From Patescibacteria group bacterium (GTDB lineage: Bacteria > Patescibacteriota > JAHJAL01): a stretch of 64,000 bases of DNA. The stretch spans positions 11,752-75,751 of the forward strand of contig DAIRGB010000001.1 in the NCBI GenBank assembly GCA_036794765.1, written 5' to 3'. The translations under genes were made by a program, and so were the position numbers. Under the pieces are notes generated by a model. The model was not told where the DNA came from and did no database searches. It was given only the letters and a program-made list of their open reading frames with translations. Shown piece after piece: positions 11,027 to 55,145 of the stretch (positions are counted from its first letter, which is position 1; each line of letters opens with the position of its first letter).

Positions 11027-11098
11027 GCGGGCATAGTATAAAGGCTATTATATTACCTTGCCATGGTAAAGATACGGGTTCGATTCCCGTTGCCCGCT
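11027..11098 (+). tRNA. tRNA-Gly with anticodon GCC.
   Basis: Acceptor stem GCGGGCA pairs with TGCCCGC. Anticodon stem-loop TTACC/TTGCCAT/GGTAA. T-arm ACGGGTTCGATTCCCGT. Discriminator U. CCA is not encoded. Confidence 0.85.
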
Positions 11099-11189
11099 TT
11101 TTTGTAGTGAGAGGATTAACGTTTTTTTCTTCTCATTTTTTTGTGTCTTTACATTGTATTTATCAGATTATATACTTTGAGAGGAAAAA

Positions 11190-11585
11190 TCGGGTAATTG
11201 CTCAATTGATTTTTGGAGTTAATTGAGAGGAAAGTCCGAGCGTTTTTAACAAATTTTTGATTTGTGATGGTGATTGAGAGAAACAATCGTCCTCCTTCGC
11301 CTAACGGCTACGGCGGATAGGGAAAGTGCCACAGAGACGATACTAGTCCGCCTTCGCTTTTTTAGCTATGGCGGGTGAAAGGTGAAAAGTTTGCTTTTAA
11401 GCAAATTACTTATTGGTGACAATAAGTGTTGGTAAACCCCACCAAAATGCAAGAGGATATAAACCTCGCCGGAGCTTGGTAGCGATATCAAGCCAAGATA
11501 GATGATTACCGTGAGAATTTTATTCTCATACAGAACTCGGATTATAGATTTTTCCAATCAAATTACGAATTGTGAGTTACAAATT
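11190..11585 (+). ncRNA. rnpB: RNase P RNA, bacterial type A-like. The ends are approximate.
   Basis: Conserved P4 5' strand GAGGAAAGTCCGAGC at 11226-11241. GGGAAAGTGCCACAGAGACG. GGGTGAAAGGTGAAAAG. GGTAAACCCCACCAAAATGCAAG. P4 3' strand ACAGAACTCGGATTAT at 11530-11546. The terminal sequences are complementary, which gives a P1 helix. Confidence 0.75.
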
Positions 11586-11669: not shown

Positions 11670-13115
11670 ATGAAAAGATCGGAAGTATTTTTTAATATTT
11701 CTTTGGTTTTTATTGATATTGCCATGATTTTGGTTGGCTTTGCTTTGGCCTACGAGATTAGATTGTATGCTTCAGATTTTGTGCCGGTGAAATGGGTTTT
11801 GCCTTTGAATGAATATTTGAGGTATATTATTTTGTTTATTCCGGTTTGGTTGGGAGTTTTTGCAGTGATGGGTTTGTATGCTTTTCGGGGGGTGGGGAGT
11901 TTTGTGTCGGAAATGTTGAAAGTAGTTTTGGCGGTATCGGCGACGATTAGTTTGATGATTTTGATTATCTTTTTTAATCGAGATCAATTTTTTTCACGTT
12001 TAATAATTATCTATGCATGGTTGTTTGTGACGGCAATGGTGGTGGTTGGTAGATTGGTTTTGCGGGCAGGTCAAAAATTTTTGTATCGATATGGGGTTGG
12101 AGTGCGAAGGGTGTTGATTGTGGGAGCAAATACTGTGGCGTGCGAATTAATTGAAGTGTTGGCAAAAAATAGTGATGGTTGGGAGTTGGTAGGAGTGATG
12201 GACGAAAAAAAACAACAAGGAGAAAAAGTATTGGGGAAATATCGGGTTTTGGGAGGGAGAGATAAGTTAGAAAAAATTAGAAAAAGATATCATATTGATG
12301 AAATATGGTTGGCTGAGGCAAAAAAGACAGATGAGGAAATGATAGATTTGATCAGTTTTTGTCAAAATTATGATCTGACTTTTCGTTTTGTTCCCAGTAT
12401 ATTGGAAGTAGTAAGTGCCAATGTGGAAACCCAGGCGGTAGCGGGTATGCCTTTGATTGCCTTGAAAGATACTGCTTTGGAGGGTTGGGGAAGAATAATT
12501 AAAAGAGTATTGGATATAATATTTTCTGTGGTAGTTTTGGTTTTTTTGTGGCCAGTTTTGTTATTGATTGCGTTGGCGGTAAAGTTGGATTCGCCCGGTC
12601 CAGTTTTTTATAAATCTGTCAGGGTGGGAAGAAAAGGAAGACTGTTTACTTTGTATAAATTTCGGTCAATGAAAGTAGAATATAGTATTGGTGAAGAGTA
12701 TGGTGGAAAAGAGGCGGAAAAGTATCGGGAAGAATTAAAGAAAAAAAATATAGCTGATGGTCCGATGTTCAAAGTTGAGGATGATCCACGAATAACCAGG
12801 GTAGGGAGCTTTATTCGCAAAACGAGATTAGATGAATTGGCTCAGATAATAAATGTGATGCGAGGGGAAATGAGTTGGATTGGTCCTAGGCCGCCATTGC
12901 CAGATGAGGTTAAACAGTATGAATCTCATCATTTGAAGAGGTTGGCAATTAAAAGTGGGATTACTGGTCCGTGGCAGGTGACGGGACGTCATGATTTGAC
13001 TTTTGACGAGATTGTGAAGTTGGACACGTATTATATTGAACATTGGTCTTTGGGCTTGGATTTGCAAATATTTTTTAAGACGATTTGGTTGATGTTGACG
13101 AAGAAGGGAGCTTAG
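11670..13115 (+). CDS. Polyprenyl-phosphate glycosyl-1-phosphate transferase of the bacterial sugar transferase family (WbaP/EpsL-like).
   Basis: Four or five N-terminal transmembrane segments. The C-terminal domain contains KFRSM...DGPMFKVEDDPRITRVGSFIRKTRLDELAQIINVMRGEMSWIGPRP. Confidence 0.8.
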   Translation: MKRSEVFFNISLVFIDIAMILVGFALAYEIRLYASDFVPVKWVLPLNEYLRYIILFIPVWLGVFAVMGLYAFRGVGSFVSEMLKVVLAVSATISLMILIIFFNRDQFFSRLIIIYAWLFVTAMVVVGRLVLRAGQKFLYRYGVGVRRVLIVGANTVACELIEVLAKNSDGWELVGVMDEKKQQGEKVLGKYRVLGGRDKLEKIRKRYHIDEIWLAEAKKTDEEMIDLISFCQNYDLTFRFVPSILEVVSANVETQAVAGMPLIALKDTALEGWGRIIKRVLDIIFSVVVLVFLWPVLLLIALAVKLDSPGPVFYKSVRVGRKGRLFTLYKFRSMKVEYSIGEEYGGKEAEKYREELKKKNIADGPMFKVEDDPRITRVGSFIRKTRLDELAQIINVMRGEMSWIGPRPPLPDEVKQYESHHLKRLAIKSGITGPWQVTGRHDLTFDEIVKLDTYYIEHWSLGLDLQIFFKTIWLMLTKKGA

Positions 13116-13163
13116 AAATAATTTCCAATTCTCAATTTTCAAACAATATTTTGTTGGGATATT

Positions 13164-14297
13164 ATGAAAAACATTAATAATATAAAGGTGGCGATTGTTT
13201 GTGATTGGTTGACTAATCCGGGTGGAGCAGAGAAGGTGGTGGAGGTGTTGGCGGATATTTTTCCTGAAGCTCCGATTTTTACTTCGGTTTGCGATCGAAA
13301 TCGTTTTAAATGGTTAAAAAAAAGAAAATTGATTACTTCCTGGTTGGATAGATTGCCGATAATAAGATACAAACATCAGTTGATGGCGCCATTTCGGCCA
13401 ATGGTGTTTGAAGGTTTTGATTTTTCGGAATATGATTTGGTTTTTTCTTTGACGAGTGCGGAGGCAAAAAATATTATAACTAAACCAAAAACTATTCATA
13501 TTTGTTATTGTCATACGCCGATAAGATATTATTGGAGTGATTATCATGAATATTTGAATCATCGTTTGGAGTTTGGGGTATTTAATCCTTTGATAAAATT
13601 GATTATGCCATTTTTGGTAAATAGTTTGCGGATTTCTGATAGAATGGCGGCAGATAGAGTAGATTATTTTTTGGCTAATTCTATCAATGTAAAAACAAGG
13701 ATAGAAAAATATTATCGTCGAGAATCAGAAGTGATATATCCGCCAGTGGAAGATGAATTTGAGGTAAAAAGGGGAGAAAAAAGTCAGAATGATTATTATT
13801 TGTGTTTAGGCCGTTTGGTTCCTTATAAAAAAGCTGATCTGGTCGTAGAAGCGTTTGTTAAAAATGGAAGAAGACTATTGGTTTCCGGTGAGGGGCCTTT
13901 GTTGTCTCGGTTGAAAAAAATAGCTGAGGGAAAAAGGAATATTGAAATATTGGGACGGGTGGATGATAATGAAAAAAAGATTTTGCTGGAAAATTGCAAA
14001 GCCTTGGTTTTTCCTGCGGAAGAAGATTTTGGAATTGTACCGGTGGAAGCAATGATGTGTGGCAAGCCGGTAGTTGCTTTTGGTAAGGGGGGGGCAAGGG
14101 AAACGGTGGTGGAAGATTTGTCGGGTGTGTTTTTTGAAAAACAGGATGTGGATTCATTGAATAAGGCAATAGTAATTTTGGAAAGAAAAAGATGGGATGA
14201 AAAAAAAATATCGGCTTGGGCGAGTAAGTTTAGGCGTGAAGTGTTTGTGAAAAATATCAATGAATTTGTAGCTAAAGTATTAAAAAGAGAAGTTTAA
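13164..14297 (+). CDS. Glycosyltransferase family 4.
   Basis: C-terminal GT-B motif EDFGIVPVEAMMCGKPVVA. Confidence 0.75.
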   Translation: MKNINNIKVAIVCDWLTNPGGAEKVVEVLADIFPEAPIFTSVCDRNRFKWLKKRKLITSWLDRLPIIRYKHQLMAPFRPMVFEGFDFSEYDLVFSLTSAEAKNIITKPKTIHICYCHTPIRYYWSDYHEYLNHRLEFGVFNPLIKLIMPFLVNSLRISDRMAADRVDYFLANSINVKTRIEKYYRRESEVIYPPVEDEFEVKRGEKSQNDYYLCLGRLVPYKKADLVVEAFVKNGRRLLVSGEGPLLSRLKKIAEGKRNIEILGRVDDNEKKILLENCKALVFPAEEDFGIVPVEAMMCGKPVVAFGKGGARETVVEDLSGVFFEKQDVDSLNKAIVILERKRWDEKKISAWASKFRREVFVKNINEFVAKVLKREV

Positions 14298-14346
14298 ATT
14301 GATAGTTGGCAATTAAAAATTGTGTTTTTAGTTTTTAATTATTAAT

Positions 14347-14970
14347 TTGATCAAAATGGATTTTAAAAAATCAATTCGTCCGTTGGTTGATTATTGGTGG
14401 TTAGTGTTGTTGAGTATGGTTATTGTTGTAGTGTCTCTGGTGATAATTGATAAATCGCAAAGTGCTGAATATGAGGGGACTATGACTTTGATTGTCAAAC
14501 AGACTATGCCTGTATCTGATGATTCTGGTTATAAATACGATGGATATTATGCAGTAATGGCCAATCAAACTTTTGCGGATACTTTAGAAAGTTGGCTTAA
14601 GAGTCCAGAGATGGTAGCGGAAATTTATGAAAAAGCAGAAATTGCTTATCCTAAAACTATGAGTGCATTAAGAGGTAGATTTGACGTGGAAAAGGTCATA
14701 TCTCAGAGTGTAGCGGTGGGAGTTAAGACTGGTTCCAGACAAGAAACTGAGGATTTATTGAATGCGACAAATGAAGTTATGAAATCGAGAATTGAGGGAA
14801 TGTTGGTTGATAAAGATGGTAAACCATTATTTACATTGAATAGATCAAATGTTTTAGTTTTGCCTTATACGATTGATTATCGATTGCAATTTGGGGTAGG
14901 TATTATGGGGGCAATTTGTGTGGGGATCTTTTTAGCTTATCTTATGTCGGCGATTTCTAAAGAAAAATAA
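14347..14970 (+). CDS. Wzz/CapA-like polysaccharide chain-length determinant protein. This is a small form and the assignment is tentative.
   Basis: N-terminal basic segment followed by a transmembrane segment, WWLVLLSMVIVVVSLVII, and then YEGTMTLIV. A C-terminal transmembrane segment. This topology matches the Wzz-like 2-TM fold. Confidence 0.45.
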   Translation: MIKMDFKKSIRPLVDYWWLVLLSMVIVVVSLVIIDKSQSAEYEGTMTLIVKQTMPVSDDSGYKYDGYYAVMANQTFADTLESWLKSPEMVAEIYEKAEIAYPKTMSALRGRFDVEKVISQSVAVGVKTGSRQETEDLLNATNEVMKSRIEGMLVDKDGKPLFTLNRSNVLVLPYTIDYRLQFGVGIMGAICVGIFLAYLMSAISKEK

Positions 14971-14982
14971 GAGGGAGGCAGT

Positions 14983-16071
14983 TTGAGAATATTGGTTGAT
15001 GCCAGGGGATTACTTGAAGAGACGAAGGCGGGTGTTGAAGGATACACTTACAATATGTTGGTTAATTTACAGAGAATGTACCCAAAGGATGAGTACATTC
15101 TTTTTTCATATTCTAGAACCAGAAGTCCAGAATCGGAGTTGGCAGATAAATGGCAATGGAAGCATTTTAGGTGGTCAAATCTTTTGGTTTCGGCTTCGTT
15201 TAGAATGTTAGGATATCCGGTAGTGGATAAGATTTTGGGTGATTTTGATTGGGTTTGGTTTCCGAATATTCGTTTTTTTCCGGTTAGCAAACAGATAAAG
15301 AAAATTGTGACAGTTCATGATTTGTCTTTTGAGATTATGCCTGATTGTTATTCGCACAAAAGAAGACTATGGCATTGGTATATGAATATCAGAAAAAATT
15401 TATTGGCGGCGCAAAAAGTGGTTTGTGTGTCGGAAAATACACGTCAGGATTTACTGGAAAGATATCATATTGAAGGGGAAAAGGTGTTTACTATTTATCC
15501 AGGGTTGGAATGTGAAAAATTTTGTGTTCCAAAGAAAGGAAAAAAAAGTAGATATATCGTATTTTTAGGAACATTGGAAGAGAGAAAAAATATTTTGACT
15601 TTGCTTAAAGCATATGAATATTACTCTCTTAGATTGACAGAACGTCCTTTAAAATTGGTATTAATAGGATCAAATTGTTTGACGTGGAATATTAAAGAAT
15701 ATTTGCGAGAGAGAAATATGCAAAACAGAGTAATGGTGTGCGGGTATTTGAATGATGAAGATCGGAATAAAATATTGTCGGAGTCGGCTGTGGTGGTATA
15801 TCCTTCTTATTACGAAGGTTTTGGTTTTCCCCCTTTGGAGGCGATAGCAATGGGTATTCCATCACTTTCTTCTTTTTGTGGTTCATTGGGAGAAGTATTA
15901 AGTAATAAATGTATGTTGCTTGATCCGTTGGATTATAAAACTTTAGCAGTGAATATTTCTCAGATATTAGATTCTGATTTGGAGAAAAAGAATAATGATT
16001 TAGGTGATTTTTTTCAAAGATATGATTGGGAGAAGTCGGCGTATCTTTTTCGAGAAATATTGGATAGTTGA
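14983..16071 (+). CDS. Glycosyltransferase family 4.
   Basis: YEGFGFPPLEAIAMGIP motif. Position in the locus with the other glycosyltransferase. Confidence 0.75.
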   Translation: MRILVDARGLLEETKAGVEGYTYNMLVNLQRMYPKDEYILFSYSRTRSPESELADKWQWKHFRWSNLLVSASFRMLGYPVVDKILGDFDWVWFPNIRFFPVSKQIKKIVTVHDLSFEIMPDCYSHKRRLWHWYMNIRKNLLAAQKVVCVSENTRQDLLERYHIEGEKVFTIYPGLECEKFCVPKKGKKSRYIVFLGTLEERKNILTLLKAYEYYSLRLTERPLKLVLIGSNCLTWNIKEYLRERNMQNRVMVCGYLNDEDRNKILSESAVVVYPSYYEGFGFPPLEAIAMGIPSLSSFCGSLGEVLSNKCMLLDPLDYKTLAVNISQILDSDLEKKNNDLGDFFQRYDWEKSAYLFREILDS

Positions 16072-16092: not shown

Positions 16093-18249
16093 TTGATCAA
16101 GAGGATGGGTAAGCAAAAGAAAAATATTGATGGCATAAATATTGTCAGGCAAAAACGGGCTGTTCAAAAAAATAATTTTGAATGGCTGGTTTTGCTGCAA
16201 AAAAAATTGAATATATTGTGGTTAGGTGGCGTGGGATGGTTTAAGTCATTGTTTACTCGGAGAGAAAAGGTTCCAAAAAAAGAGTTGGCTAGCATGCAAT
16301 GGGATTTTTTTGAGATGCGTAGTTTTTTTGTTAAAAATTATTCATATTTGATTGTGGCTGTTTTGTTGATTGGTTTTGTTTCGTTGACAACTTACAATCT
16401 ATGGGGAGTTAAAAATAGGGTGGTGTCGGCGGCGGAGAATGGTGCGGATCGGATGAAGATGGGAGTTGAAGAGATGAAAAAAGAAAATTTTTCTCAAGCA
16501 GTTGAAGATTTTGCCGTGGCCAATAATGAGTTTTTGAAGATAAAACGAGAGTTGAATCGGGCTGGGCAGGATAGTAATTTTATGTCAAAGAGTTTACCGA
16601 AAGACGAATATGAAAACGTTACTAGAGCGGTTGATGGTTTAATTGCGATGAGTCGGGGTGCGAAGTTGTTGGCTTTGGGATTGCAGGAGATTACTGTATA
16701 TGCCAATGGAGATTTTTCTGGCTTGGTGGTGGGGATTTTGACCAACAAGGATGGTTCGGAGAATATTTTGCCGGTAGTGGATAAAGCAGGAGATTATTTT
16801 GCCAAATCAACACTTGAGTTGGAAAATGGTATTACTTTGTTTCGACAAATTGATGAGAATCGGGTGCCGGATGAATATAAAAAGTGGTTTGATTTGATCA
16901 AAAAGGATTCCCCGAGATATCTTAGTTTGTTGACTGGTGTTAATAGTTTTTTTGGTGATTTGGATACTTTGCTTGGTCGGGATGTGCCAGTAAATTATTT
17001 GTTGTTATTTCAAAATTATAATGAAATAAGACCTACGGGTGGATTTATCGGGAGTTATGGTCTGGCTGAGTTTCGAGGGGGCAAGATGACTGAGTTGGGT
17101 TTTGATGATATTTATAATCCAGATGGTCAAATGTTGGAAAAAATTGATCCACCTTACCCGATTTCAATGATGACAAAATATTGGGAGATGAGGGATAGTA
17201 ATTGGTATCCGGATTTTCCTAGTACGGCCAAAAATGCGGTGAAAATGTATGAAAAAGAAGGAGGTTTTACGGTTGATGGTGTAATTGCCTTTACGCCGGA
17301 GGTTGTTTCCAGATTTTTGGCTTTAACTGGTCCGGTGGAGATGCCTGGTTATGGTACAACCTTGGACGAACAAAATTTTACTCAGGAGATACAAAAAAAG
17401 GTGGAATTGGATTATGATCGAGTAGAAAATAAACCAAAGAAAATTTTGGGGGATTTGTTGCCGGTTTTGATAGATCGTTTAGCCAATTTGCCGGTTGAGA
17501 AGAAGGAAGGTTTTTGGCAAACAATGTTGGATTTATTGAGTGAAAAACATATACTAGTTTTTTCATTTAATCCGGAGATAGAAAAATTGATTATGGATAT
17601 TGGTTGGGCGGGGGAGATGAAAACAATTTCTTCCAATCAAGATTATTTAAATTTGATTCATGCCAATATTGGCGGACGAAAAAGTGATTTATTTATTCGA
17701 GAGGCTATAAAACATACTGTTAGTATTGATTCTGAAGGAAATATTGTCGTTGATTTGGAAATTACCAGGAAAAATACTGAAGATTGGTCTTGGCCCAATT
17801 ATTCCAACTATGATTATTTGAGAGTTTATGTGCCGGAGGGAAGTGAGTTGTTGGCGGTTGATGGTTTTGTTAATCCGGAAGGAATGATTATTGGTGAAGG
17901 TGATGTAATAAGTTATGATCAAAAATCAGGAGAAGCAGGCTTGGGTAATACAAAGGTTACAGTGGAAAATGGAAAGACTGTTTTCTCCAATTGGATGGTG
18001 ACGGATCCTTGGTCGGCCAGTGTGGCTCGATATCAATATAGGCTGCCATTTAAAGCGGGGGAAAAATATAGTCTATATTATCAAAAACAGTCGGGGAGAA
18101 AAGAAATTGATTATATGTTTAAATTTGTTCCCGGAAAACAAAATAAGGTTTTGGGATCAAATTTGAATATTGCAAATAACGCTGGAGATTATTTTTGGCG
18201 AGATACAGTAAAGAAGGATTTGGTGATTAGTTTTGATCTGTCAAAGTAA
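16093..18249 (+). CDS. Large membrane-anchored, exported hypothetical protein that belongs to the polysaccharide locus.
   Basis: 718 aa. One N-terminal transmembrane segment, LIVAVLLIGFVSLTTY. No catalytic motif I recognise. Confidence 0.45.
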   Translation: MIKRMGKQKKNIDGINIVRQKRAVQKNNFEWLVLLQKKLNILWLGGVGWFKSLFTRREKVPKKELASMQWDFFEMRSFFVKNYSYLIVAVLLIGFVSLTTYNLWGVKNRVVSAAENGADRMKMGVEEMKKENFSQAVEDFAVANNEFLKIKRELNRAGQDSNFMSKSLPKDEYENVTRAVDGLIAMSRGAKLLALGLQEITVYANGDFSGLVVGILTNKDGSENILPVVDKAGDYFAKSTLELENGITLFRQIDENRVPDEYKKWFDLIKKDSPRYLSLLTGVNSFFGDLDTLLGRDVPVNYLLLFQNYNEIRPTGGFIGSYGLAEFRGGKMTELGFDDIYNPDGQMLEKIDPPYPISMMTKYWEMRDSNWYPDFPSTAKNAVKMYEKEGGFTVDGVIAFTPEVVSRFLALTGPVEMPGYGTTLDEQNFTQEIQKKVELDYDRVENKPKKILGDLLPVLIDRLANLPVEKKEGFWQTMLDLLSEKHILVFSFNPEIEKLIMDIGWAGEMKTISSNQDYLNLIHANIGGRKSDLFIREAIKHTVSIDSEGNIVVDLEITRKNTEDWSWPNYSNYDYLRVYVPEGSELLAVDGFVNPEGMIIGEGDVISYDQKSGEAGLGNTKVTVENGKTVFSNWMVTDPWSASVARYQYRLPFKAGEKYSLYYQKQSGRKEIDYMFKFVPGKQNKVLGSNLNIANNAGDYFWRDTVKKDLVISFDLSK

Positions 18250-22929: not shown

Positions 22930-25047
22930 ATGAGTGTCAAGATTTCGGATTTAGCGAAAAAATTGGGTTTGGAAATTAAGGCTTTGCGAAGTCAGATAAA
23001 GGATATGCATTTGGGGGTTAGCGAACGAGCCAATGTTTTTCGCGATGAATTGGCGATGGAGATTGAACGACGGATAAAGAAAGACGAGGTAATAAGTAAT
23101 AGTGGCAAAGAGAATGTGTTATTGAAAAAGAAGGTGGAGAAGGATATGTCCGAGGGTGTTCAAGTTGTTTCAAGTGAGGAAAATGAAACTGATTTTGGGG
23201 AAGAGATGCAAAGTGAAGTTCTTGATGTATTGGAAACAAAAAATGATGAGTTTGAAAATGAGTCGGATTTACCAAGGAAACCTCAAGTTGAGATACCGCC
23301 ATTGGTAACGGTAGGTGAATTTGCGGCGCGGATGAATATTGGTGTGTCGGATGTGATAAAAGAACTGATGAAAAACGGTATTTTGGCAAATATAAATGAA
23401 CATATAGATTTTGATACTGCTACCATAATTGGTGAAGATCTTGGTTTTGAGGTGACTTTATGTCAAAACAACGGTAATGATTTGGAAAGTTGTTTGGTTG
23501 ACGAAAATAGATACGATAAAAAATATTTTCAGACAAGACCTCCGATTATTACGGTAATGGGTCATGTTGATCATGGTAAGACTTCGATTTTGGATCGTAT
23601 TCGCAAGGCAGATGTGGTAGCTAAGGAATCCGGGGGGATTACTCAACACATGGGAGCTTATCAGGTTAAGAAAAATGGTAGAACAATTACTTTTTTGGAT
23701 ACTCCGGGTCATAAAGCCTTTTCGGCTATGAGGGCACATGGGGCGAAATTGACTGATATCGCGGTTTTGGTAGTGGCGGCTGATGACGGAGTAAAACCAC
23801 AGACAATTGAGGCTATTAATCATGCTAGGGCTGCGGGTGTACCAATAATTGTGGCTATCAATAAAATTGATAAACCGGAAGCCAATATTGATAAGGTAAA
23901 AAGAGAATTAGCTGATTTTAATCTTTTGCCGGAGGAATGGGGTGGAAATACGATTATGGTTTTGACTTCGGCCAAGAGTGGTGAGGGTATTGATGAATTA
24001 TTGGAGATGATTTTACTGGTTGCTGACGTGGAAGATTTGAAAGCTTATCGTGAAGGTCCGGCACAAGCGTTGGTGATTGAAGCTCATCTGAGTAAAAGGG
24101 TTGGTCCGGTGGCAACGGTAATGGTTACTCAAGGTTGTTTGCATGTCAGAGACAGTATAATTGTTGGTACGGTTGATGGTGTGGTGCGAGCAATGGTTGA
24201 TCAATATGGAGAAAGGATTTCCAAAGCATATCCGGCTGATCCGGTGCGGATCGCTGGTTTGCACGATGTGCCCGAGTTTGGTGATACTTTGTATGTAGTA
24301 AATAATTTGAAAGAAGCGAAGAATATTGTTCTCAGTCGTCGAAAAAGTATGATGACAAAGGGATTTACTCCCAAGACGGTTGGCATGGCCGAGTTGTCTC
24401 AGGCAGTAAGAGAAGGAAAAATAAATGTTTTGCCGGTAATTCTTAAAACGGATGTTCAGGGTTCTTTGGAAGCAATCAGGAGTTCTTTGCAAAATTTACA
24501 TAACGATGAGGTAAAAGTAGAAATTCTTCATGAAGCAGCGGGTTTGGTAAATGAATCTGATATAATGATGGCGGCCAGTTCCAATGCTTTGATTTTGTCT
24601 TTTAGGGCCAATATTGAACCTAGCGCCTTGAAATTGGCCAAGAAGATGGGGATAAAGATTTCTTCTTATGATGTGATTTATCGTTTGCTTGATGATGTGA
24701 CAGCTGCGTTGGAGGGTTTATTGAAACCGGAAATTGTAAAAGTAAAAGTTGGCAAGGGTAAGGTGTTACGCGTTTTTACTCATGGGAAAAAATTCAGAGT
24801 GATAGGGGTTGGGGTAACTAGTGGTTTGGCAGAAAAGGGTTTGGAGGTAATTGTTTTTCGAGATGGAAAAAAGGTTGGTGAAGGAAAGATAGACGGTTTA
24901 AAGAAAGGAACAGAATCGGTAGATAAAGTCGCTGAAAAAAATGAATGTGGTTTGGGATTGGCTGGAGATATCAAGGTTGAGGAGGGTGATAGTTTGGAAT
25001 TTTGGAAATCTGAATCTAGAGTGCGCCGTTTGTCTGAATTGGAATAG
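22930..25047 (+). CDS. infB: Translation initiation factor IF-2.
   Basis: G domain GHVDHGKTSILD, DTPGH, NKID. Domain order typical of IF-2. Confidence 0.9.
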   Translation: MSVKISDLAKKLGLEIKALRSQIKDMHLGVSERANVFRDELAMEIERRIKKDEVISNSGKENVLLKKKVEKDMSEGVQVVSSEENETDFGEEMQSEVLDVLETKNDEFENESDLPRKPQVEIPPLVTVGEFAARMNIGVSDVIKELMKNGILANINEHIDFDTATIIGEDLGFEVTLCQNNGNDLESCLVDENRYDKKYFQTRPPIITVMGHVDHGKTSILDRIRKADVVAKESGGITQHMGAYQVKKNGRTITFLDTPGHKAFSAMRAHGAKLTDIAVLVVAADDGVKPQTIEAINHARAAGVPIIVAINKIDKPEANIDKVKRELADFNLLPEEWGGNTIMVLTSAKSGEGIDELLEMILLVADVEDLKAYREGPAQALVIEAHLSKRVGPVATVMVTQGCLHVRDSIIVGTVDGVVRAMVDQYGERISKAYPADPVRIAGLHDVPEFGDTLYVVNNLKEAKNIVLSRRKSMMTKGFTPKTVGMAELSQAVREGKINVLPVILKTDVQGSLEAIRSSLQNLHNDEVKVEILHEAAGLVNESDIMMAASSNALILSFRANIEPSALKLAKKMGIKISSYDVIYRLLDDVTAALEGLLKPEIVKVKVGKGKVLRVFTHGKKFRVIGVGVTSGLAEKGLEVIVFRDGKKVGEGKIDGLKKGTESVDKVAEKNECGLGLAGDIKVEEGDSLEFWKSESRVRRLSELE

Positions 25048-25112: not shown

Positions 25113-27380
25113 ATGAGTCTTGAGAAAATAAATTTTGTTTCTTTGGATTTGGAAACCACTGGATTGGATTCAAAAAAGGATTCAATAATCGAGGTTGGTT
25201 TGGTTCGTTTTGATTGGCGGGGAAAAATCTTGGATCGTTTTTCTTCTCTGGTATATTTTGATGGGGAGTATTCTGATTTGGTTGAATCGTTAACGGGTAT
25301 TTCCGGACGGGATTTATTGTTGGCGCCACATTGGGAGGAGATAAAAAGAGAAATTATTAAATTTGTAAAGGATGAAGATGTTTTAATAGGCCATAATATT
25401 AATTTTGATTTAAGTTTTTTATCTAGTTTTGGGATAAATTGGTTTGGTCGAAAAAATTTGGATAGTTGGTATTTGGCTACGATATTGATAAGCAACGCTA
25501 GATCATATTCTTTGGAATATTTATTGAAGATTATTGGCAAAGAGTATCAAGCTCATCGAGCACTGGATGATGCTGAAGCGGTAGTTGATTTGTATGTGTA
25601 TTGGCAAGCAGAATTGAGTAAAGTTTCAGATAAGGTGTTTGATTTGTTGCAAAAAATTGCCGTCGGTAGTAATTTGCCGGAGGGGATTTTGTACGATTTG
25701 GAAAAATTGCGAAGGAGAAGTGAAGGAGTGGTGGTTAAAATTAATAAGAATAGAGAGGAAGTATTTATAAATACAAGGGTTGAGAAAGAGTTGGATAAAA
25801 CGGATGTTGGGCAGGGTATGAATTATTTGTCAATGAATTTTCGGGAGTTGTTGAAGAGTAAACAAAAATCGGGAGTGGTAGTTGTTGGTTCTTTTTTATG
25901 GAATCATTTTATTCGAACGTTTGATTCTCGAAGGTATGATTTAATCAAATTTGATCGAAGAGATAAATTTTTATGCAAAAATTTTTGGCGAGGTTTGTAT
26001 AAAAAAACTTCTTATTCTGTTTGTGAAGCCAGAGTAGTAATAAAGATACTTTTGAAAATTGATCGGGGATATTGGGATGGATATTTGGAAGACATAATGT
26101 GGTTTAACGAGGAGAGGGATTTGGCGTTTGGACTTGGTTGTCGTGAGACTGAGGATGGACATGATTGTTATTTTGATAGAAAAATTAGAAATATTTTGCG
26201 CACAGATAGTGGTGTGATTTTACCGGCAACAATAGTTGAACAGGCGAAAGTGCTAGGCAAAAAAAGGATTTCTATTTTTTCAGAAGATCCTTTGTTGGAA
26301 GATGGTCTAACTGATTTGACCGGTTTGATCTATGATCGGGATAGCTGGACATTTGATTGCAGGCAAATAGTTGATTTGGTAGAAAAAATGAGATTGCAGA
26401 AGAAAAAAGTCAGATCAATAACTGAGTGGATGGAGAAGATGGAATTGTTGTGGAGGGGGCTGTGGTTGCTGGTTAGATCGCATGGACAAAAAGAGGAAAA
26501 TAAAATCCGATTGGAATTAACGACTGCGGTGATGGCAGAAATTTCTTTTCAGAATTTGTCAAAGCAGTGGGCAAATATTATTTCGCGTTATTCAGAGGTT
26601 TTTGAGGAATTGGAGCGGGAAAAGTTGGGCGGGGGCATAAAGAGAGTTTTTGATAATACTTTTACGTCGAGTGATTGGTTAACTTCAATTGTTGAATATG
26701 GAAGTGGATATTGGCGTTTGGAATTGAAAAGAAAAAAATTCAATGAGTGGATATTGGATTTATTAAAGGACTATTCGGTTATTAATTTGATTAATTTTTT
26801 CCCTGTTTCAAGTAATAATTATTTTTGGAGTTTGTTGGGATTTCACAAAGTGAATATATTGAATAACTCCAAACCGGAAATTCGGGCTAAAATAGAAAAT
26901 ATTTCTTGGGTAAAGTTTAGACAAAATATTGATTGGAAAAATTTGAATAGTCAATTGATAGTTTTTAATTCAAAATCTGATATGTCTGTTGCGTTGGAGG
27001 GTTTACGGGAAGAAAAAAAGGAGGGGAAGATATTTGAATTGGGAACAAAAAGGGGAGCTTGGTATTTTGATTTGTGTCAGGAAAATTTTCAAGGAGTGGT
27101 TTTAACCTCTTATGCAAATTTGGGCGAGTTGGGTGTTTTGGAAAAAAAATTTGACATAATATATTTAGATCGATTACCTTTTGATTATCCAAATAAGTTT
27201 GTATTAGCATCGAGAGCATATGAGTGGCAGGATGATTATTTTAATGATTATTTTTTGCCAAGGATGTATCAGAAGTTGTATTATGTTTCTACTTTATTAA
27301 AGCCGGAAGGAAAGTTTTTTTTGGGGGATGATAGGTGGATAAAGAAAAATTATGTTAGCAAAAGTAACAAAAAGATATGA
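25113..27380 (+). CDS. DEDD (DnaQ-like) 3'-5' exonuclease domain fused to a C-terminal region of about 580 aa with unknown function.
   Basis: Exo I FVSLDLETTGLD. Exo II GHNINFDLSFL. Exo III HRALDDAEAV. The remaining ~580 aa lack Walker motifs. Confidence 0.6.
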   Translation: MSLEKINFVSLDLETTGLDSKKDSIIEVGLVRFDWRGKILDRFSSLVYFDGEYSDLVESLTGISGRDLLLAPHWEEIKREIIKFVKDEDVLIGHNINFDLSFLSSFGINWFGRKNLDSWYLATILISNARSYSLEYLLKIIGKEYQAHRALDDAEAVVDLYVYWQAELSKVSDKVFDLLQKIAVGSNLPEGILYDLEKLRRRSEGVVVKINKNREEVFINTRVEKELDKTDVGQGMNYLSMNFRELLKSKQKSGVVVVGSFLWNHFIRTFDSRRYDLIKFDRRDKFLCKNFWRGLYKKTSYSVCEARVVIKILLKIDRGYWDGYLEDIMWFNEERDLAFGLGCRETEDGHDCYFDRKIRNILRTDSGVILPATIVEQAKVLGKKRISIFSEDPLLEDGLTDLTGLIYDRDSWTFDCRQIVDLVEKMRLQKKKVRSITEWMEKMELLWRGLWLLVRSHGQKEENKIRLELTTAVMAEISFQNLSKQWANIISRYSEVFEELEREKLGGGIKRVFDNTFTSSDWLTSIVEYGSGYWRLELKRKKFNEWILDLLKDYSVINLINFFPVSSNNYFWSLLGFHKVNILNNSKPEIRAKIENISWVKFRQNIDWKNLNSQLIVFNSKSDMSVALEGLREEKKEGKIFELGTKRGAWYFDLCQENFQGVVLTSYANLGELGVLEKKFDIIYLDRLPFDYPNKFVLASRAYEWQDDYFNDYFLPRMYQKLYYVSTLLKPEGKFFLGDDRWIKKNYVSKSNKKI

Positions 27381-40816: not shown

Positions 40817-41311
40817 ATGAAGAAAAGTAAAAAAGTTTTTCAAGGGCAAAAAGATGGGGAAGAACTGATTATGATTTTTCGTAAGCATTGGTTTGGTATT
40901 ATTAAACCAATTTGTTTGTTTACGTTATTATTTGTGGTGTCGGTGTTGATATTGGTATATTGGTTTGATATTACGATAATGTTGATTGTTGGATTTGTGA
41001 TTTTATTGTTGGCGATTTTTTATTTTTTGTATAATTATTTGTTGTGGTGGCAGGATGTGTATATTTTGACCACTCAAAGAGTTATTGATGTTGATCAGAA
41101 ATCTTTATTTCATCGGGTTGTGTCGGAAGCGGAGTTAAAAAATATTCAAGACACAAATTATGAGGTTGAAGGATTTTGGCGGACAATGTTGAATTTTGGG
41201 CGCGTCAAGATTCTTACTGCATCTTCTGGTCAGAGTATTGTTTTTGAGGATATATCCAATCCTCATAAAGTGCAAGAAATGATAATCCAAGCTAAAGATG
41301 TATTAGGTTAA
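40817..41311 (+). CDS. Membrane protein with a bacterial PH (YdbS/DUF304-like) domain.
   Basis: Two transmembrane segments followed by a bPH-like beta-rich domain. Confidence 0.5.
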   Translation: MKKSKKVFQGQKDGEELIMIFRKHWFGIIKPICLFTLLFVVSVLILVYWFDITIMLIVGFVILLLAIFYFLYNYLLWWQDVYILTTQRVIDVDQKSLFHRVVSEAELKNIQDTNYEVEGFWRTMLNFGRVKILTASSGQSIVFEDISNPHKVQEMIIQAKDVLG

Positions 41312-42673
41312 TGAATCGTTTAGGCTTTGGATTCGTAAGTATTCTATGGCGGGAGATATTTTGCGATCAATTGGTTCGGAGAGGATGAGAAATTCCTTGG
41401 TTTTTTTGATGTCAAGGACGTCTTTCCCAGGGCGGAGGAATTTTAACATTTTTAGTTGATTTTGAACAATATTCTTGAGATCAAAAATATTTTTGAAGGA
41501 TGTGTGGCTAGTAAAGACGCCACTTGTAAGACTTATTGGTGGCGGGGTTGTGTCGGAACCAATATTCCGAAAAATAATTTGTGAGCCCTTGATTGGATTT
41601 TGTTGGATATTTTCGATGGTTTGATCAGATAATTGATATTCTAGTTGCAACATTTCCAGGATGTGAATGGCCAAAAGAGGAATTTGGTTATTTTTCAATT
41701 GTAATTTTGTAACCATAGGAACGGAAGCAGTGAGGCGGGGATTGCACTCGATGAAGAAATGTTGACCGGTTTGAGAATCAATAACAAAATCTAATCCAAA
41801 AAAGCCGTTGTAGTTTAATTTTTGGAGATAAACACCAAATTTTTTCACATCAGAGTAGAGTCGGGATAGATTTTTAAAAACGTTTAGATTGGCAGAATAT
41901 ATATTTCCGCAAGTTCCACCGGGGGAGGGGTTGAGGTCGGGGAGGTTGGTTATTTGAAAGAAAGGTGGTTGGATGACGATTTGAGCTTTGTTGACACTAG
42001 GGTGGAGTATACAGGCATTGAGTGAATAGGTTGGTCCGTCGATTTTTTGGCTGATTTTGGTGGGATAATTGAGATAGTTGTTTTTGACTAATTGAAGTTG
42101 GTCATCTGAAGAGACCAAAAATGTGGAACTACCAGCAAATCCTCTGGGAAATTGGAGAAAAAATTGTGGTCCGTATTTTTGGGAGTAATTTTGATAGGAT
42201 ATTTCCTTTAATTTTTCGATTGAGTAATCGGGTTGAGGGAGAGATAATTCGGTTATGATTTGGGAAAAATTTATTTTATTTTCGATTTGGCGGTTGAGTT
42301 TAGCGGGATTGGCAAGCAATTGCCAGCGATTATTTTGACAAATTTTTTCCAACGAAGGAGACGGTTTATAAACTAAAATATTGGATTGATATTGGTTAAA
42401 TGATGTTATGTGCTTGATAGTAGCTGGATGATTTAGCAACACGTTGGTACTTCGTCTTTTGAGAAGATCTTTGGTGTTATTTAGTAGAGAAAAATGATTA
42501 ACAGAAGGGGGGAAAAGTTTGGTTATTGGATGATCGTCGTAACTGATGATTTTGAGAGGGAAAATTTCTTCTAATCCTAAGGCATCTTTTGGGAAAGTGA
42601 CAGCAAAAAAAATATCGTCAACGTATTGTCGGGTAATAAATTCTTTTAGGTTGGTTTGGTCTTTGATAAACAT
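41303..42673 (-). CDS. ATP-grasp family ligase.
   Basis: GFFGLDFVIDSQTGQHFFIECNPRLTAS. The E-x-N-P-R motif is characteristic of the ATP-grasp fold. Confidence 0.55.
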   Translation of the reverse strand: MFIKDQTNLKEFITRQYVDDIFFAVTFPKDALGLEEIFPLKIISYDDHPITKLFPPSVNHFSLLNNTKDLLKRRSTNVLLNHPATIKHITSFNQYQSNILVYKPSPSLEKICQNNRWQLLANPAKLNRQIENKINFSQIITELSLPQPDYSIEKLKEISYQNYSQKYGPQFFLQFPRGFAGSSTFLVSSDDQLQLVKNNYLNYPTKISQKIDGPTYSLNACILHPSVNKAQIVIQPPFFQITNLPDLNPSPGGTCGNIYSANLNVFKNLSRLYSDVKKFGVYLQKLNYNGFFGLDFVIDSQTGQHFFIECNPRLTASVPMVTKLQLKNNQIPLLAIHILEMLQLEYQLSDQTIENIQQNPIKGSQIIFRNIGSDTTPPPISLTSGVFTSHTSFKNIFDLKNIVQNQLKMLKFLRPGKDVLDIKKTKEFLILSEPIDRKISPAIEYLRIQSLNDSLT

Positions 42674-48066: not shown

Positions 48067-51000
48067 ATGACCGAATATACAAAAGAAGAATTATTGAGAA
48101 ATTTTTGTCATCTGCATGTGCATTCCCATTATAGCATGTTGGATGGGGTTGGTAAAATAGGTGATATTGTTGCGAGAGCCAAGGAATATGGAATGAAAGC
48201 GATTTCCTTGACTGATCATGGGACAATGTATGGAATTATTGAATTTTACGAGAAAGCTAAAGAAGCGGGCATTAAACCAATTTTGGGATTGGAGGCTTAT
48301 CTGGCTCCTCGGAAGATGACAGATAAAACACCGCGGATTGATAACGATAATAGACATTTGACTTTGTTGGCAAAAAATATTGCTGGATATAAAAATTTGG
48401 TGAGAATTACTTCAGCGGCTCATTTGCATGGATATTATTATAAGCCAAGAGTGGATTATGATTTCTTGGTCGAGCATAGCGAGGGGATTATTTGTCTGTC
48501 CGGTTGTCTTAATGGTCCGGTGGCGAAGGCAATGATAAATAAAAATAAAAGTGGCGCTTTGGAGCATATCACAAAATTAAAAAAAATATTTAATGATGAT
48601 TTTTATCTTGAGTTGCAGTGGCATGCAAATAGCGAGGATCAAAAAATTGCCAATGAGGGTTTGATTGGCTTAGCGAAAGAATTGAATATTCCTTTGGTAG
48701 CTACTGGAGACATTCATTATATTTATCCTGAGGACAATGAAGTGCAGGATGTTTTGGTTTGTATTCAGACTGGGAAGTTGTTGAGTGATAAAGATAGATT
48801 GTCGTTTTTGGACTATAATCTTTCGATGGCTTCTCCGGAAAAAATGTTGGAAGTTTTTTCACATGTGCCCGAAGCTTTGGCTAATACAGGCAAAATTGCA
48901 GATATGTGTAATACCGAGTTGGAGTTGGGTAAATATTTTTTGCCACAAATAGAAAAACCGGAGGGTTTTAAAGATGATTTGGATTATTTGGAGTGGTTGA
49001 CAGTAAAAGGGATGGTAAAGAGATATGGTGATCCAAAATTGGTGGAAAAAGATAATTTTGATCGGGAAAAAGTGTTACAAACTTTGGATCAAAAATATGT
49101 CGAGCGGATGAACTATGAGTTAGGGGCGATCAAGAATATGGGTTTTCCTTCATATTTTTTGATAGTATATGATTTTGTTCAATATGCCAAAAATAATGAT
49201 ATTATGGTTGGTCCTGGACGTGGTTCAGGGGCGGGCAGTATTGTTTTGTATTCATTGGAGATTACGGATTTGTGCCCAATAAAATATGGATTATTGTTTG
49301 AAAGGTTTATTAATCCTGATCGTATTTCAATGCCTGATATTGATTTGGATTTTGCCGATGATAAGCGGGGTGAAGTATTGAAATATGTATGTGAAAAATA
49401 TGGTGAAGATCGGGTGGCACAAATAATCACATTTGGAACCATGAAGGCCAGAGTGGCAGTTAGAGATGTGGGACGAGTAATGGGTTTTAGTTATTCTGAT
49501 GTTGATCGGATTGCCAAGTTGATCGATCCCAAGGGAAAATTAAAACAATCGTTGGAAACGGTTCAAGAGCTGAAAGATATCTATGAAAAAGATGCTGGGG
49601 TAAAAAAGTTGATTGATATGTCAATGAAATTGGAGGGGGTGGCGAGACATTTTGGAATGCATGCTTGCGGGGTAGTTATTTCTCCCGGTCCTTTGACTGA
49701 CTATGTGCCTTTGCAAGAAGCAACAAAAGGTGATACTAAAATGTTGAGTCAGTACAGTTTGCATCCGGTGGAAGTTGTTGGTTTGGTAAAAATGGACTTT
49801 TTGGGTTTGGCCAATTTGACTATTATGAAAAATGCTTTGCGTATTATTAGAAAAGTCTATGATATTGAAGTTAATCTAAATGATATTCCTTTTGATGATA
49901 AAAAAACATATGAGATGTTGGCCCAGGGTTTGTCTACAGGAGTGTTTCAGTTGGAAAGTCAGGGGATGAAAAAATATTTGCGAAAATTGAAGCCTCAGGT
50001 ATTGGATGATGTCATTGCTATGGCAGCTATGTATCGTCCGGGACCTCTCAATAGTGGGATGACGGATGAGTTTATTGATCGCAAAAATGGTTTAAAGAAA
50101 ATCGAATATTTTCATCCAAGTATGGAGAATGCCTTAAAAGATACTTATGGGGTGGTGATTTATCAGGAACAGTGTATGCAGCTTTCAAAAGATATGGCTG
50201 GTTTTACTGGTGGTGAAGCTGATACATTACGTAAGGCCATTGGAAAAAAAATTCCTGAGTTGATGGCCAAGGTTGGCAAGGATTTTATTGATGGATGTGA
50301 GAAAAATGGGATTAGTAAAGATACGGCTCAGAAAGTATTTGATGATATGGCCAAGTTCGCTGAATACGGTTTTAATAAGGCGCATTCAACTTGCTACGGG
50401 GTTATTTCTTATAAGACTGCATATTTGAAAGCGCATTATGCTCCGGCTTATATGGCGGCGGTTTTGACTTCGGAACAGAATAATACTGACCGGTTGACGA
50501 TTGTGATTGAGGAATGCGAGCGCATGGGAATCAAAGTTTTGCCGCCTGACATCAATGAATCATTTGTGGAATTTGGTGTGGTCAAAGAAACAAAAGATGT
50601 GCGTTATGCTTTGGCGGCGATAAAAAATGTGGGAGAGGGAATTTCGGAAGAAATAGTGAAGGAAAGAGGAAAAAATGGTAATTATAAGAATATTGGTGAT
50701 TTGGTGGTACGTACGATGCCACTCGGTTTGAATCGAAAGACTTTAGAAAGTTTGATAAAATCTGGGGCTTTGGATAGGTTCGGAACAAGAGCGGCAATGA
50801 TGAATGCAATTGAGCTGATTTTGAATTTTGGTAGAGATGCTGGCAAAATTAGAGCTTTGGGTCAGACAGATATATTTGCTGCGATGGGTACGGAGGAAAA
50901 AGATGATGTCAAACCGATGGAAATTGATTTTCCAAAACTGGAAGAAGTAAGTAAAAAAGAGTTGTTGGGTTGGGAAAAAGAGTTGATGGGGATGTATTTG

Positions 51001-51603
51001 TCCGATCATCCCTTGGGAGAATACAAGAATTATTTACGAAAGAAGGCTGTTGGTTTGAGAGATTTGAGTTTGGATCAGGAGGGAGAGAAGGTAACGGTAG
51101 GAGGGGTTATAACCAGGATACAGAAAATTATTACCAAAAAAGGTGATGCTATGGCCTTTACAACGATTGAGGACATAGGTGGTATTGTAGAATTGTTAAT
51201 TTTTCCCAAGGTGTTTAGTAAAAATCAGGAATTGTGGAATGAAGGCAATGTGGTTTTGGCTTCCGGAACTATAAGTACGAAAGATAATCAAATTAAGATT
51301 TTGGTGGATAAGGCAGAAGAGATAAATTTGGTTGAGGCTAAAAAGGTTTCGGACGAGGAAGTAGCTGAGATGGAAAAAGAGACGGAGGTTGCCGAATCAA
51401 TTTTTGTAATCAAGATACCGGAAGGCAGCAAGAAGGAGATTTTGGGGCAGTTGAAGGAAATATTAATCGCAAACGAAGGAAAGAATCAGGTAAGACTATC
51501 CTTGTTTGTTCAAAATAAGGAGGTGATTGTGGAGACAGATTTAAAAGTTAGCTTGACTTCTCAATTGAAGAATCAGGTTTACTTATTGTTGAATAATGGT
51601 TAA
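48067..51603 (+). CDS. dnaE: DNA polymerase III alpha subunit.
   Basis: PHP domain HLHVHSHYSMLDG. Palm GPGRGSGAGSIVLYSLEITD. OB-fold at the C-terminus. 1178 aa. Confidence 0.9.
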   Translation: MTEYTKEELLRNFCHLHVHSHYSMLDGVGKIGDIVARAKEYGMKAISLTDHGTMYGIIEFYEKAKEAGIKPILGLEAYLAPRKMTDKTPRIDNDNRHLTLLAKNIAGYKNLVRITSAAHLHGYYYKPRVDYDFLVEHSEGIICLSGCLNGPVAKAMINKNKSGALEHITKLKKIFNDDFYLELQWHANSEDQKIANEGLIGLAKELNIPLVATGDIHYIYPEDNEVQDVLVCIQTGKLLSDKDRLSFLDYNLSMASPEKMLEVFSHVPEALANTGKIADMCNTELELGKYFLPQIEKPEGFKDDLDYLEWLTVKGMVKRYGDPKLVEKDNFDREKVLQTLDQKYVERMNYELGAIKNMGFPSYFLIVYDFVQYAKNNDIMVGPGRGSGAGSIVLYSLEITDLCPIKYGLLFERFINPDRISMPDIDLDFADDKRGEVLKYVCEKYGEDRVAQIITFGTMKARVAVRDVGRVMGFSYSDVDRIAKLIDPKGKLKQSLETVQELKDIYEKDAGVKKLIDMSMKLEGVARHFGMHACGVVISPGPLTDYVPLQEATKGDTKMLSQYSLHPVEVVGLVKMDFLGLANLTIMKNALRIIRKVYDIEVNLNDIPFDDKKTYEMLAQGLSTGVFQLESQGMKKYLRKLKPQVLDDVIAMAAMYRPGPLNSGMTDEFIDRKNGLKKIEYFHPSMENALKDTYGVVIYQEQCMQLSKDMAGFTGGEADTLRKAIGKKIPELMAKVGKDFIDGCEKNGISKDTAQKVFDDMAKFAEYGFNKAHSTCYGVISYKTAYLKAHYAPAYMAAVLTSEQNNTDRLTIVIEECERMGIKVLPPDINESFVEFGVVKETKDVRYALAAIKNVGEGISEEIVKERGKNGNYKNIGDLVVRTMPLGLNRKTLESLIKSGALDRFGTRAAMMNAIELILNFGRDAGKIRALGQTDIFAAMGTEEKDDVKPMEIDFPKLEEVSKKELLGWEKELMGMYLSDHPLGEYKNYLRKKAVGLRDLSLDQEGEKVTVGGVITRIQKIITKKGDAMAFTTIEDIGGIVELLIFPKVFSKNQELWNEGNVVLASGTISTKDNQIKILVDKAEEINLVEAKKVSDEEVAEMEKETEVAESIFVIKIPEGSKKEILGQLKEILIANEGKNQVRLSLFVQNKEVIVETDLKVSLTSQLKNQVYLLLNNG

Positions 51604-55074: not shown

Positions 55075-55145
55075 TCCGGGATCGTCTAATGGTAGGACAG
55101 CGGCCTCTGAAGTCGTCAATCTTGGTTCGAATCCAAGTCCCGGAG
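55075..55145 (+). tRNA. tRNA-Gln with anticodon CTG.
   Basis: Acceptor stem TCCGGGA pairs with TCCCGGA. Anticodon loop CTCTGAA. T-arm CTTGGTTCGAATCCAAG. Discriminator G. Confidence 0.75.

Follow-up and report, generated by a model that had tools for sequence, protein, structure and literature searches.

A 755-residue protein encoded at 25113..27380 on the forward strand of a 64,000 nucleotide stretch of a Patescibacteria group bacterium assembly (GCA_036794765.1, contig DAIRGB010000001.1, positions 11,752 to 75,751; this whole stretch is hereafter called the window) is best explained as a derivative of ExoDinG, in which an intact DEDDh exonuclease is fused to a DinG/XPD body turned non-motor scaffold that would act as a passive clamp. 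We give this explanation a probability of roughly 0.72. ExoDinG proteins consist of an N-terminal 3'-5' exonuclease followed by DinG, with either an iron-sulphur (FeS) domain of 3-4 Cys, CCHC variants included, or a pseudo-FeS (pFeS) domain (PMC11981726). The evidence comprises homology of fold, loss of the motor motifs, conservation of catalytic residues and putative metal ligands, purifying selection, and a conserved gene order. The open reading frame (ORF), which begins with ATG, divides as follows, HD1 and HD2 being the two RecA-like motor domains:

25113..25622, forward strand: DEDDh (DnaQ/RNase T-like) 3'-5' exonuclease domain, aa 1-170, assigned from Pfam, a PDB match and conserved residues
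25623..25814, forward strand: linker between exonuclease and helicase body, aa 171-234, two helices that align with the ExoDinG linker and a variable low-confidence stretch
25815..25958, forward strand: degenerate N-terminal part of HD1, aa 235-282 (boundaries approximate), a strand-turn-helix in place of beta1/Walker A/alpha1
25959..26207, forward strand: FeS-type domain, aa 283-365 (boundaries approximate), putative ligands C288 (YLC), C343, H350 and C352
26208..26336, forward strand: C-terminal part of HD1 with a motif II remnant, aa 366-408, register taken from E. coli DinG 'LDEGHHLPD' and Table S1 (PMC11981726) 'DEAHHLEDVAT'
26337..26741, forward strand: Arch-like helical insertion, aa ~409-543 (boundaries approximate)
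26742..27377, forward strand: return strand of HD1 (motif III remnant) and HD2, aa ~544-755, assigned from hhalign, a weak YoaA match and invariant columns

The exonuclease domain

The three motifs that the original prediction had placed in the first ~170 residues (DLETTG, HNINFD and HRALDD) are all present, as D12-L-E14-T-T-G, H94-N-I-N-F-D99 and H148-R-A-L-D-D153, and the catalytic residues D12, E14, D99, H148 and D153 are conserved in 12/12 full-length members of the family. Pfam RNase_T (PF00929) matches aa 9-161 (E=4.5e-22; 79.8 bits against a cut-off of 24), so that both the five residues and a score above the gathering threshold place the domain among the DEDDh exonucleases. Its best sequence match in the PDB is the PolC exonuclease domain 2p1j (E=1.7e-19), with DnaQ and Cas2-DEDDh also matched. 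The active site is intact as read from the sequence, and the domain should degrade single-stranded nucleic acid from its 3' end.

The same matches bear on a different reading, in which the protein is a replicative proofreading exonuclease, equivalent to epsilon or the PolC exonuclease, and its C-terminal body a replisome tether. The best solved relatives of the domain are indeed the PolC and DnaQ exonucleases; a 76%-identical homologue is named 'PolC-type DNA polymerase III' at NCBI; and among the genes of the window is one for a DnaE-type DNA polymerase III alpha subunit (48067-51603, forward strand), with no separate dnaQ seen in the examined parts of the 64 kb. Against this, the protein has no polymerase domain, its C-terminal region has a DinG fold rather than an epsilon tail or PolC, its exonuclease domain, linker and FeS anchors are collinear with those of ExoDinGs, the window's DnaE carries its own N-terminal PHP domain, and the dnaQ observation covers part of one 64-kb window. 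We consider a proofreading role improbable. Identity with PolC-type polymerase itself was rejected, the polymerase core, PHP and OB parts being missing and the exonuclease portion alone matching (NF001688, 84 bits against 873). The public name is an annotation artefact, since it reflects similarity of the exonuclease domain and a separate DnaE is encoded.

A DinG/XPD fold in the C-terminal region

Sequence models say little about the C-terminal region. Pfam and NCBIfam scans of aa 180-755, whole and as sub-fragments at E<=10, returned noise plus one weak match of the last 175 aa to YoaA, a DinG paralogue (NCBIfam, E=0.063, profile positions 467-571 of 630), and helicase families of Pfam gave zero matches even at that threshold. 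The NCBIfam models ranking highest for the protein were PolC and two exo-DinG models, TIGR01407 and PRK08074, covering aa ~7-183 alone; scores lay far below the curated DinG/ExoDinG cut-offs (TIGR01407, 91 against 547.7 bits; PRK08074, 84 against 789; PRK07246, 64 against 794). A search of all PDB sequences with the family profile likewise gave zero matches at E<=10.

Structure prediction was more informative. A single-sequence AlphaFold model of the full-length protein was unusable (predicted local distance difference test, pLDDT, 34), and the usable model is that of the C-terminal region alone, built with a 13-sequence family alignment (model A3; pLDDT 81.6, predicted TM-score 0.81). When this model was compared with the PDB by Foldseek, the top 40 matches were all DinG, XPD/Rad3 or CasDinG, among them E. 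coli DinG (6FWR, E=5.4e-19, TM 0.62), S. aureus exo-DinG (9II8/8ZEF, ~1e-16) and Finegoldia DinG (1e-12). The C-terminal 580 aa are thus modelled as the full DinG/XPD four-domain fold (HD1, FeS-type, Arch, HD2), two RecA-like motor domains with the FeS-type and Arch domains inserted into the first. The degenerate RecA-like fold that had been proposed as worth seeking in residues 180-755 is there, and a region described from the letters as 'uncharacterised' can now be called a DinG derivative, one in which helicase motifs are, as had been said, not recognisable.

Sequence alignment points the same way. The hhalign comparison of the family with E. coli DinG is statistically weak (P=0.0027) and collinear from DinG 47 to 687; family positions 440-577 pair with 537-689 of E. 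coli DinG (P=0.0027), whereas the global mode gave a meaningless alignment. Anchor pairs (E. coli DinG / family) include IAFPPIDSP / LPFDYP, YDKRLLTKNYG / GDDRWIKKNY and LDEGHHLPD / SEDPLLED, and by eye the last ~100 aa resemble the end of a DinG/XPD HD2 ('FDIIYLDRLPFDYP...R...F..Y.LPRM...G....GDDR...K.Y').

At the N-terminal side we aligned the first 335 aa of the family with the first ~500 aa of seven ExoDinGs (Table S1, PMC11981726), and found them collinear end to end, through exonuclease domain, linker, motif Ia strand and first FeS Cys; the protein therefore has the complete exonuclease and matching linker upstream of a DinG body that define an ExoDinG. The exonuclease domain is 35-38% identical to that of Chloroflexi ExoDinG, and BLAST matches aa 8-216 to the Anaerolinea ExoDinG at E=8e-29. 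The linker carries a family motif DWxYxxLF (LPEGILYDL in the window; NWDAYIVF in the Anaerolinea ExoDinG), and includes a stretch, A3 residues 35-56, where the AlphaFold2 pLDDT falls below 50. The original prediction had likened the layout to Firmicute exonuclease-helicase fusions without helicase signatures; the ExoDinG layout holds, and the nearest counterparts are the FeS-bearing ExoDinGs of the Chloroflexi type rather than the pFeS type of Firmicutes.

Loss of the motor motifs

The motif Ia strand is retained (VVVVGS in the window, LVVS as family consensus, paired by hhalign with LVVST of E. coli DinG), and what should precede it is gone: in a MAFFT alignment with the seven ExoDinGs, every family member lacks the ~28-residue block 'LMVEAGTGTGKSFAYLIPAAIFAYQN', which comprises beta1, Walker A and alpha1. 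At the P-loop position the model has only a 2-residue loop, joining a strand (60-65) to a helix (68-73). Pattern scans found neither a Walker A ([AG]x4GK[ST]) nor a DExH box in the protein or at the homologous position in 12 relatives, so that all 13 of 13 lack Walker A there; the sole regular-expression match to it, ADCLFGKT at residue 563 of relative P0004, lies in HD2 and is not conserved. Motif I (GxGK[ST]) is accordingly absent relative to both the seven ExoDinGs and E. coli DinG.

Motif II survives as a remnant. The segment 'ISIFSEDPLLEDG' in the C-terminal part of HD1 is the counterpart of DinG 'vviDEAHhLEDva', with 'SEDP' at the 'DEAH' position. The column of the Walker B Asp (390) holds S in the window and S/I/V/L/N/T/G across the 13 members, never Asp, and that of the Walker B Glu (391) holds E/D in 9/13. 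The LED box that follows is invariant (E396 and D397, 13/13), which fixes the register of the motif. Motif VI (QxxGRxxR; 'QQVGRLIR') is replaced by 'YYVSTLLK', and no member (0 of 13) has an Arg at its positions, with or without a 1-residue gap. The conserved ATPase site that ExoDinGs have in MD1/MD2 is therefore lacking at motifs I, II and VI, in agreement with the earlier statement, made from the sequence, that the C-terminal ~580 aa contain no Walker A or B motif. Structural motifs of HD2, on the other hand, are kept: LPFDxP (688-693), R701, F710, Y713, R717-M718, G733 and D739-x-R741...Y747, of which D739-x-R741 presumably corresponds to the D681/R683 region of XPD.

Because the P-loop, the Walker B Asp and the motif VI Arg are lost, the protein, judged from its sequence, cannot bind or hydrolyse ATP in the canonical way, translocate or unwind. 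A fully standard DinG helicase with overlooked motifs was considered and rejected, motifs I, II and VI being truly absent. A subtler alternative is that the protein still works as an ATP-dependent ExoDinG helicase-nuclease, with ATPase motifs too diverged to be recognised. It would suit the retained DinG fold, the acidic residue that 9/13 members have at the Walker B Glu position, the basic residue conserved at position 721 and the strong purifying selection on the region, but would have to do without any GK[ST] at the homologous place, without the Walker B Asp or either Arg of motif VI in 13/13 members, and without a match to any Pfam or NCBIfam helicase hidden Markov model. Since the P-loop block is missing in all members, reduced in the model to a 2-residue turn, rather than mutated, we regard a cryptic active helicase as quite improbable.

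The FeS-type site

While the motor motifs have gone, a set of metal ligands has stayed. C288, C343 and C352 are invariant in 13/13 members, and every member (13/13) has one more potential ligand, Cys or His, between C343 and C352. The WDG motif (321-323) is likewise invariant. In the window the spacing is C-x54-C-x6-H-x-C, with H350 as the fourth ligand; His also fills this place in P0002, P0003, P0009, P0010, P0011 and P0013, and Cys in P0006, P0007 and P0012 (C-x4-C-x3-C), P0004 (C-x5-C-x3-C), P0005 (CC) and P0008 (CxC). Topologically, the site is placed where DinG has its FeS domain, and hhalign pairs its anchors with those of E. coli DinG (E. coli DinG / family: GRGRYVC120PRN / DxRxxYLC288R; YKWDGL / WDG321-323; SC194...C199...C205 / RC343...C352). 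At the level of ligand pattern, all 13 members thus carry what appears to be an ExoDinG FeS domain (3-4 Cys, CCCC or CCHC), and CCHC variants of CCCC are recognised among DinG-like proteins and treated as FeS-competent (PMC11981726). We infer a metal cluster at this Cys3His site, or Cys4 site in several relatives. The original prediction, right about the missing helicase motifs, had reported no other recognisable motif in the C-terminal region and so passed over these ligands.

Selection and family distribution

Comparing the gene with its 76%-identical relative (dS ~0.74), the ratio of nonsynonymous to synonymous substitution rates (dN/dS) was 0.12 for the exonuclease, 0.17 for the degenerate N-terminal part of HD1 with the FeS-type domain, 0.19 for the rest of HD1 with the Arch, 0.14 for HD2 and, at its highest, 0.25 for the linker; over the whole C-terminal region it was 0.18. 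In that region the members are only 20-25% identical, and 22 columns are nonetheless invariant. Because of this purifying selection and these invariant columns, the motor-dead body is, on sequence grounds, functional and not decaying. The contrary view, that the gene is decaying or artefactual, its helicase part drifting as an appendage or two ORFs having been fused by an assembly error, can point to the loss of the catalytic helicase motifs and to the rarity of the family, and fails on the dN/dS value, the invariant columns, the confident model and the state of the frame, which is unbroken, ~720-760 aa long and of the same architecture in at least 6 independent assemblies and in 12 of 15 representative clusters. 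Unbroken frames of equal length in independent assemblies exclude a sequencing-error fusion, a possibility that had been raised with the original prediction. The selection and conservation data have effectively refuted this view, which is hardly credible.

The family is rare and confined to a small clade of Patescibacteria. A word-indexed protein search recovered the protein itself and one relative, P0002 (76% identical; GCA_049322675.1, Patescibacteria group bacterium; public name 'PolC-type DNA polymerase III'), and the same search with the 13-sequence profile returned these two alone. An exhaustive HMMER search with the C-terminal profile against 1.84 billion cluster representatives found 15 proteins, 12 of them 723-759 aa long with a common architecture and 1-2 members per 90% cluster. 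When 185,579 species-representative genomes were scanned with a pattern, three loci came up, and their labels read Patescibacteria or uncultured bacterium. Other relatives bear the public name '3'-5' exonuclease [Patescibacteria group bacterium]'.

Homologues found with the exonuclease domain only were for the most part short or partial exonucleases, and no full-length intermediate was among them. The closest such relative outside the family, P0017, is 43% identical and has a family-like linker ('SWKYAELF'), and the nearest with a long enough sequence, P0020 (Caldilineaceae), has a normal 'IIEAGTGTGKS'. P0017 (121-3444 of L009, GCA_035340955.1) is a contig-end fragment that follows a VirD4/TraG-like coupling-protein gene (DUF87/TrwB; type IV secretion system), a context quite unlike the gyrA-infB-der cluster described below; the fragment is uninformative.

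Gene neighbourhood

The gene begins 65 nt downstream of infB (22930-25047) and its end overlaps the start of der (EngA):

27377..27380, forward strand: ATGA overlap between the stop of the studied gene (TGA, 27378-27380) and the start of der (ATG, 27377-27379), read from the sequence, with Der domains found by Pfam

Both the coupling to der at 27377 and the position directly after infB had been called from the sequence, and both are borne out. The order gyrA-infB-X-der, X being the studied gene, recurs in 6/6 loci examined (the window, L001/L004, L005, L006, L007 and L008), where gyrB usually precedes gyrA and lepB (reverse strand)-LytR-DUF5656 usually follows der. X and der overlap by 1-8 nt in 5/6 of these loci (besides the window, L001, L006, L007 and L008); in L005 they are separated by a 17-nt gap.

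This setting bears on whether the protein might be an anti-phage or mobile-element defence nuclease resembling CasDinG or the DEDDh effectors of CRISPR and CBASS. PADLOC models (DEDDh and PDC-S48) do match the exonuclease domain, and CasDinG is among the structural neighbours of the C-terminal model, yet the PADLOC matches are limited to that generic domain, with none on the C-terminal region, and all genomes examined have the gene within one fixed housekeeping cluster (gyrB-gyrA-infB-X-der-lepB), where no cas or defence genes adjoin it. We hold a defence function to be very improbable.

Elsewhere in the window, genes for a sugar transferase and glycosyltransferases (11670-16071) and then for a 718-aa DUF4012 protein (16093-18249) stand immediately upstream of gyrB, and the DUF4012-gyrB junction is also found in relative L001. 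A bacterial class A RNase P RNA (11182-11560, forward strand, 160 bits) adjoins a tRNA (11027-11098), and a 456-aa ORF (41303-42673, reverse strand) matches no Pfam family at E<=1e-6. The stretch from 55075 to ~63500 has the look of a mobile element, or a prophage remnant, integrated at a tRNA: next to a tRNA gene (55075-55145) is a large serine recombinase (Pfam Resolvase and Recombinase, 55116-56726, reverse strand), and an N6/N4 DNA methylase (61801-63486) lies downstream. A LOOT RNA (Rfam RF03000), a small RNA of unknown function, is matched in full length at 60043-60160 on the forward strand (72.7 bits against a gathering score of 46.4), possibly within this putative element.

Possible role

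In XPD and DinG, single-stranded DNA runs across HD2 and HD1, beneath the Arch and FeS domains. If the protein is an ExoDinG derivative with a dead motor, it would work as a 3'-5' exonuclease without need of ATP, with its DinG-derived body as the platform to which single-stranded nucleic acid binds. That body would passively clamp or guide single-stranded DNA or RNA, selecting substrates and presenting their 3' ends to the exonuclease, with no ATP-dependent regulation or translocation such as that reported for S. aureus and B. subtilis ExoDinG.

By analogy with Listeria ExoDinG, the target may be the 3' ends of pre-rRNA or other RNA, a possibility at which co-transcription with der and infB hints; DNA is an equally good candidate, with 3' ends at stalled forks or R-loops as the target, as has been suggested for B. 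subtilis and S. aureus. An RNA or ribosome role is attractive because of the translational coupling to der, which encodes a 50S-assembly GTPase, and the adjacency of infB, but DNA and RNA come out about equally likely because gyrB and gyrA lie in the same cluster and gene order is conserved region-wide. Housekeeping RNA/DNA end processing is what the conserved synteny and the published biology of ExoDinGs together suggest. A more specific version, in which an FeS-cluster-bearing, ATP-independent RNA/DNA clamp gates the exonuclease and the enzyme, expressed together with IF2 and Der, is a housekeeping exoribonuclease that trims the 3' ends of pre-rRNA or takes part in ribosome quality control, is speculative and, taken as a whole, rather unlikely.

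The explanation as an ExoDinG derivative must be tempered by several points that weigh against it. The C-terminal structural model was built on only 13 sequences, and the motif register rests on ~13% identity alignments to one full-length DinG, because the ExoDinG sequences compared are the first ~500 aa given in Table S1 (PMC11981726) and the mapping of motifs II-VI had only E. coli DinG and a few of those fragments to go by. The invariant E396/D397, R701, R717, the always-basic position 721 and D739/R741 could form a non-canonical nucleotide site, and the Cys3His/Cys4 site could bind Zn instead of a [4Fe-4S] cluster. Adjacency to infB and der is weak functional evidence, because gene order is conserved across the whole region in small genomes and gyrB/gyrA belong to the same cluster.

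If the more specific clamp version were correct, the family would be a natural separation-of-function variant, implying that the ExoDinG nuclease needs the FeS/Arch/HD2 scaffold and not the motor. The clade amounts to a natural experiment: the motor is excised, yet purifying selection acts on the body and its FeS-type ligands almost as strongly as on the nuclease. Such selection on a motor-less body argues for an ATP-independent scaffold job, for instance in binding or selecting substrates or in sensing. ExoDinG enzymes are being actively studied, the contribution of their helicase half to the nuclease is still debated, and this clade bears on that question, besides offering a simple system for the role of the FeS domain in XPD/DinG proteins apart from unwinding. 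The public annotations 'PolC-type DNA polymerase III' and plain '3'-5' exonuclease' can be corrected, and Patescibacteria can be added to the distribution of DinG-like proteins. The scope is modest: the clade is small and rare, the basis is sequence and models, and the sDinG proteins treated below are a precedent for motor-dead DinG-like proteins.

Comparison with known DinG-like systems

The studied family is best classed as a motor-dead ExoDinG derivative rather than an ordinary ExoDinG, and the variant is previously undescribed. Our literature search turned up no report of an ExoDinG that combines an intact nuclease and retained FeS ligands with excision of the motor, nor any of a DinG-like protein in Patescibacteria; the word 'Patescibacteria' is absent from the main text and supplementary files of the published survey of DinG-like proteins (PMC11981726). 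That survey used BLAST seeded with E. coli DinG at 1e-5 (PMC11981726), and the family was beyond its reach because it would not pass such a search.

The nearest known proteins are the FeS-bearing ExoDinGs of Chloroflexi (Anaerolinea thermophila E8N555, and Tepidiforma with CCHC), with which the family shares the order of exonuclease, linker, HD1 with FeS and Arch, and HD2, as well as a series of anchors: the linker motif, the motif Ia strand, GRxNYLC (GRSNYLC; DRxxYLC in the family) and the CCCC/CCHC ligands. Unlike them, the family lacks the beta1/Walker A/alpha1 block, the Walker B Asp and the motif VI Arg, is ~150-200 aa shorter, and has a helicase part that Pfam and NCBIfam DinG models do not recognise.

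With the ExoDinGs of S. aureus, B. subtilis and Listeria (PDB 8ZEF, 9II8; Foldseek E~1e-16) the family shares the fusion of an exonuclease to a DinG fold and, by analogy, would be expected to share 3'-5' exonucleolytic activity towards single-stranded DNA and RNA. These Firmicute proteins (PMC3270479, PMC12345164, PMC12525004, PMC12774634) have all the ATPase motifs, a nuclease modulated by ATP and a pFeS domain with 0-1 Cys, whereas the family shows the opposite, having kept the FeS ligands and lost the motor. Characterised ExoDinGs degrade single-stranded DNA and RNA in the 3'-5' direction (PMC3270479, PMC12525004), that of Listeria initiates degradation of unprocessed rRNA (PMC12774634), and in that of S. 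aureus single-stranded DNA has been seen on MD2 and in the exonuclease site (PMC12345164). For S. aureus DinG, helicase activity was reported absent in 2012 and present in 2025, and ATP inhibits both its activities.

E. coli DinG (PDB 6FWR/6FWS) and archaeal and eukaryotic XPD differ more, being active helicases of 5'-3' polarity whose motifs I, II and VI are complete and which have no exonuclease domain. The short cyanobacterial sDinG (PMC11981726, section 3.9) is a precedent for a predicted DinG fold without conserved ATP-binding residues, not a conventional helicase, but unlike the family it has neither exonuclease nor FeS/pFeS domain, has a compact Arch, belongs to another phylum and shows no detected sequence relationship. 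The pExoDinG proteins (e.g. of Caulobacter; PMC11981726, section 3.6) resemble the family in that one catalytic module is dead and the fold kept. They mirror it: pExoDinG has a dead nuclease beside an intact helicase and FeS domain, the Patescibacteria family a dead motor beside an intact nuclease.

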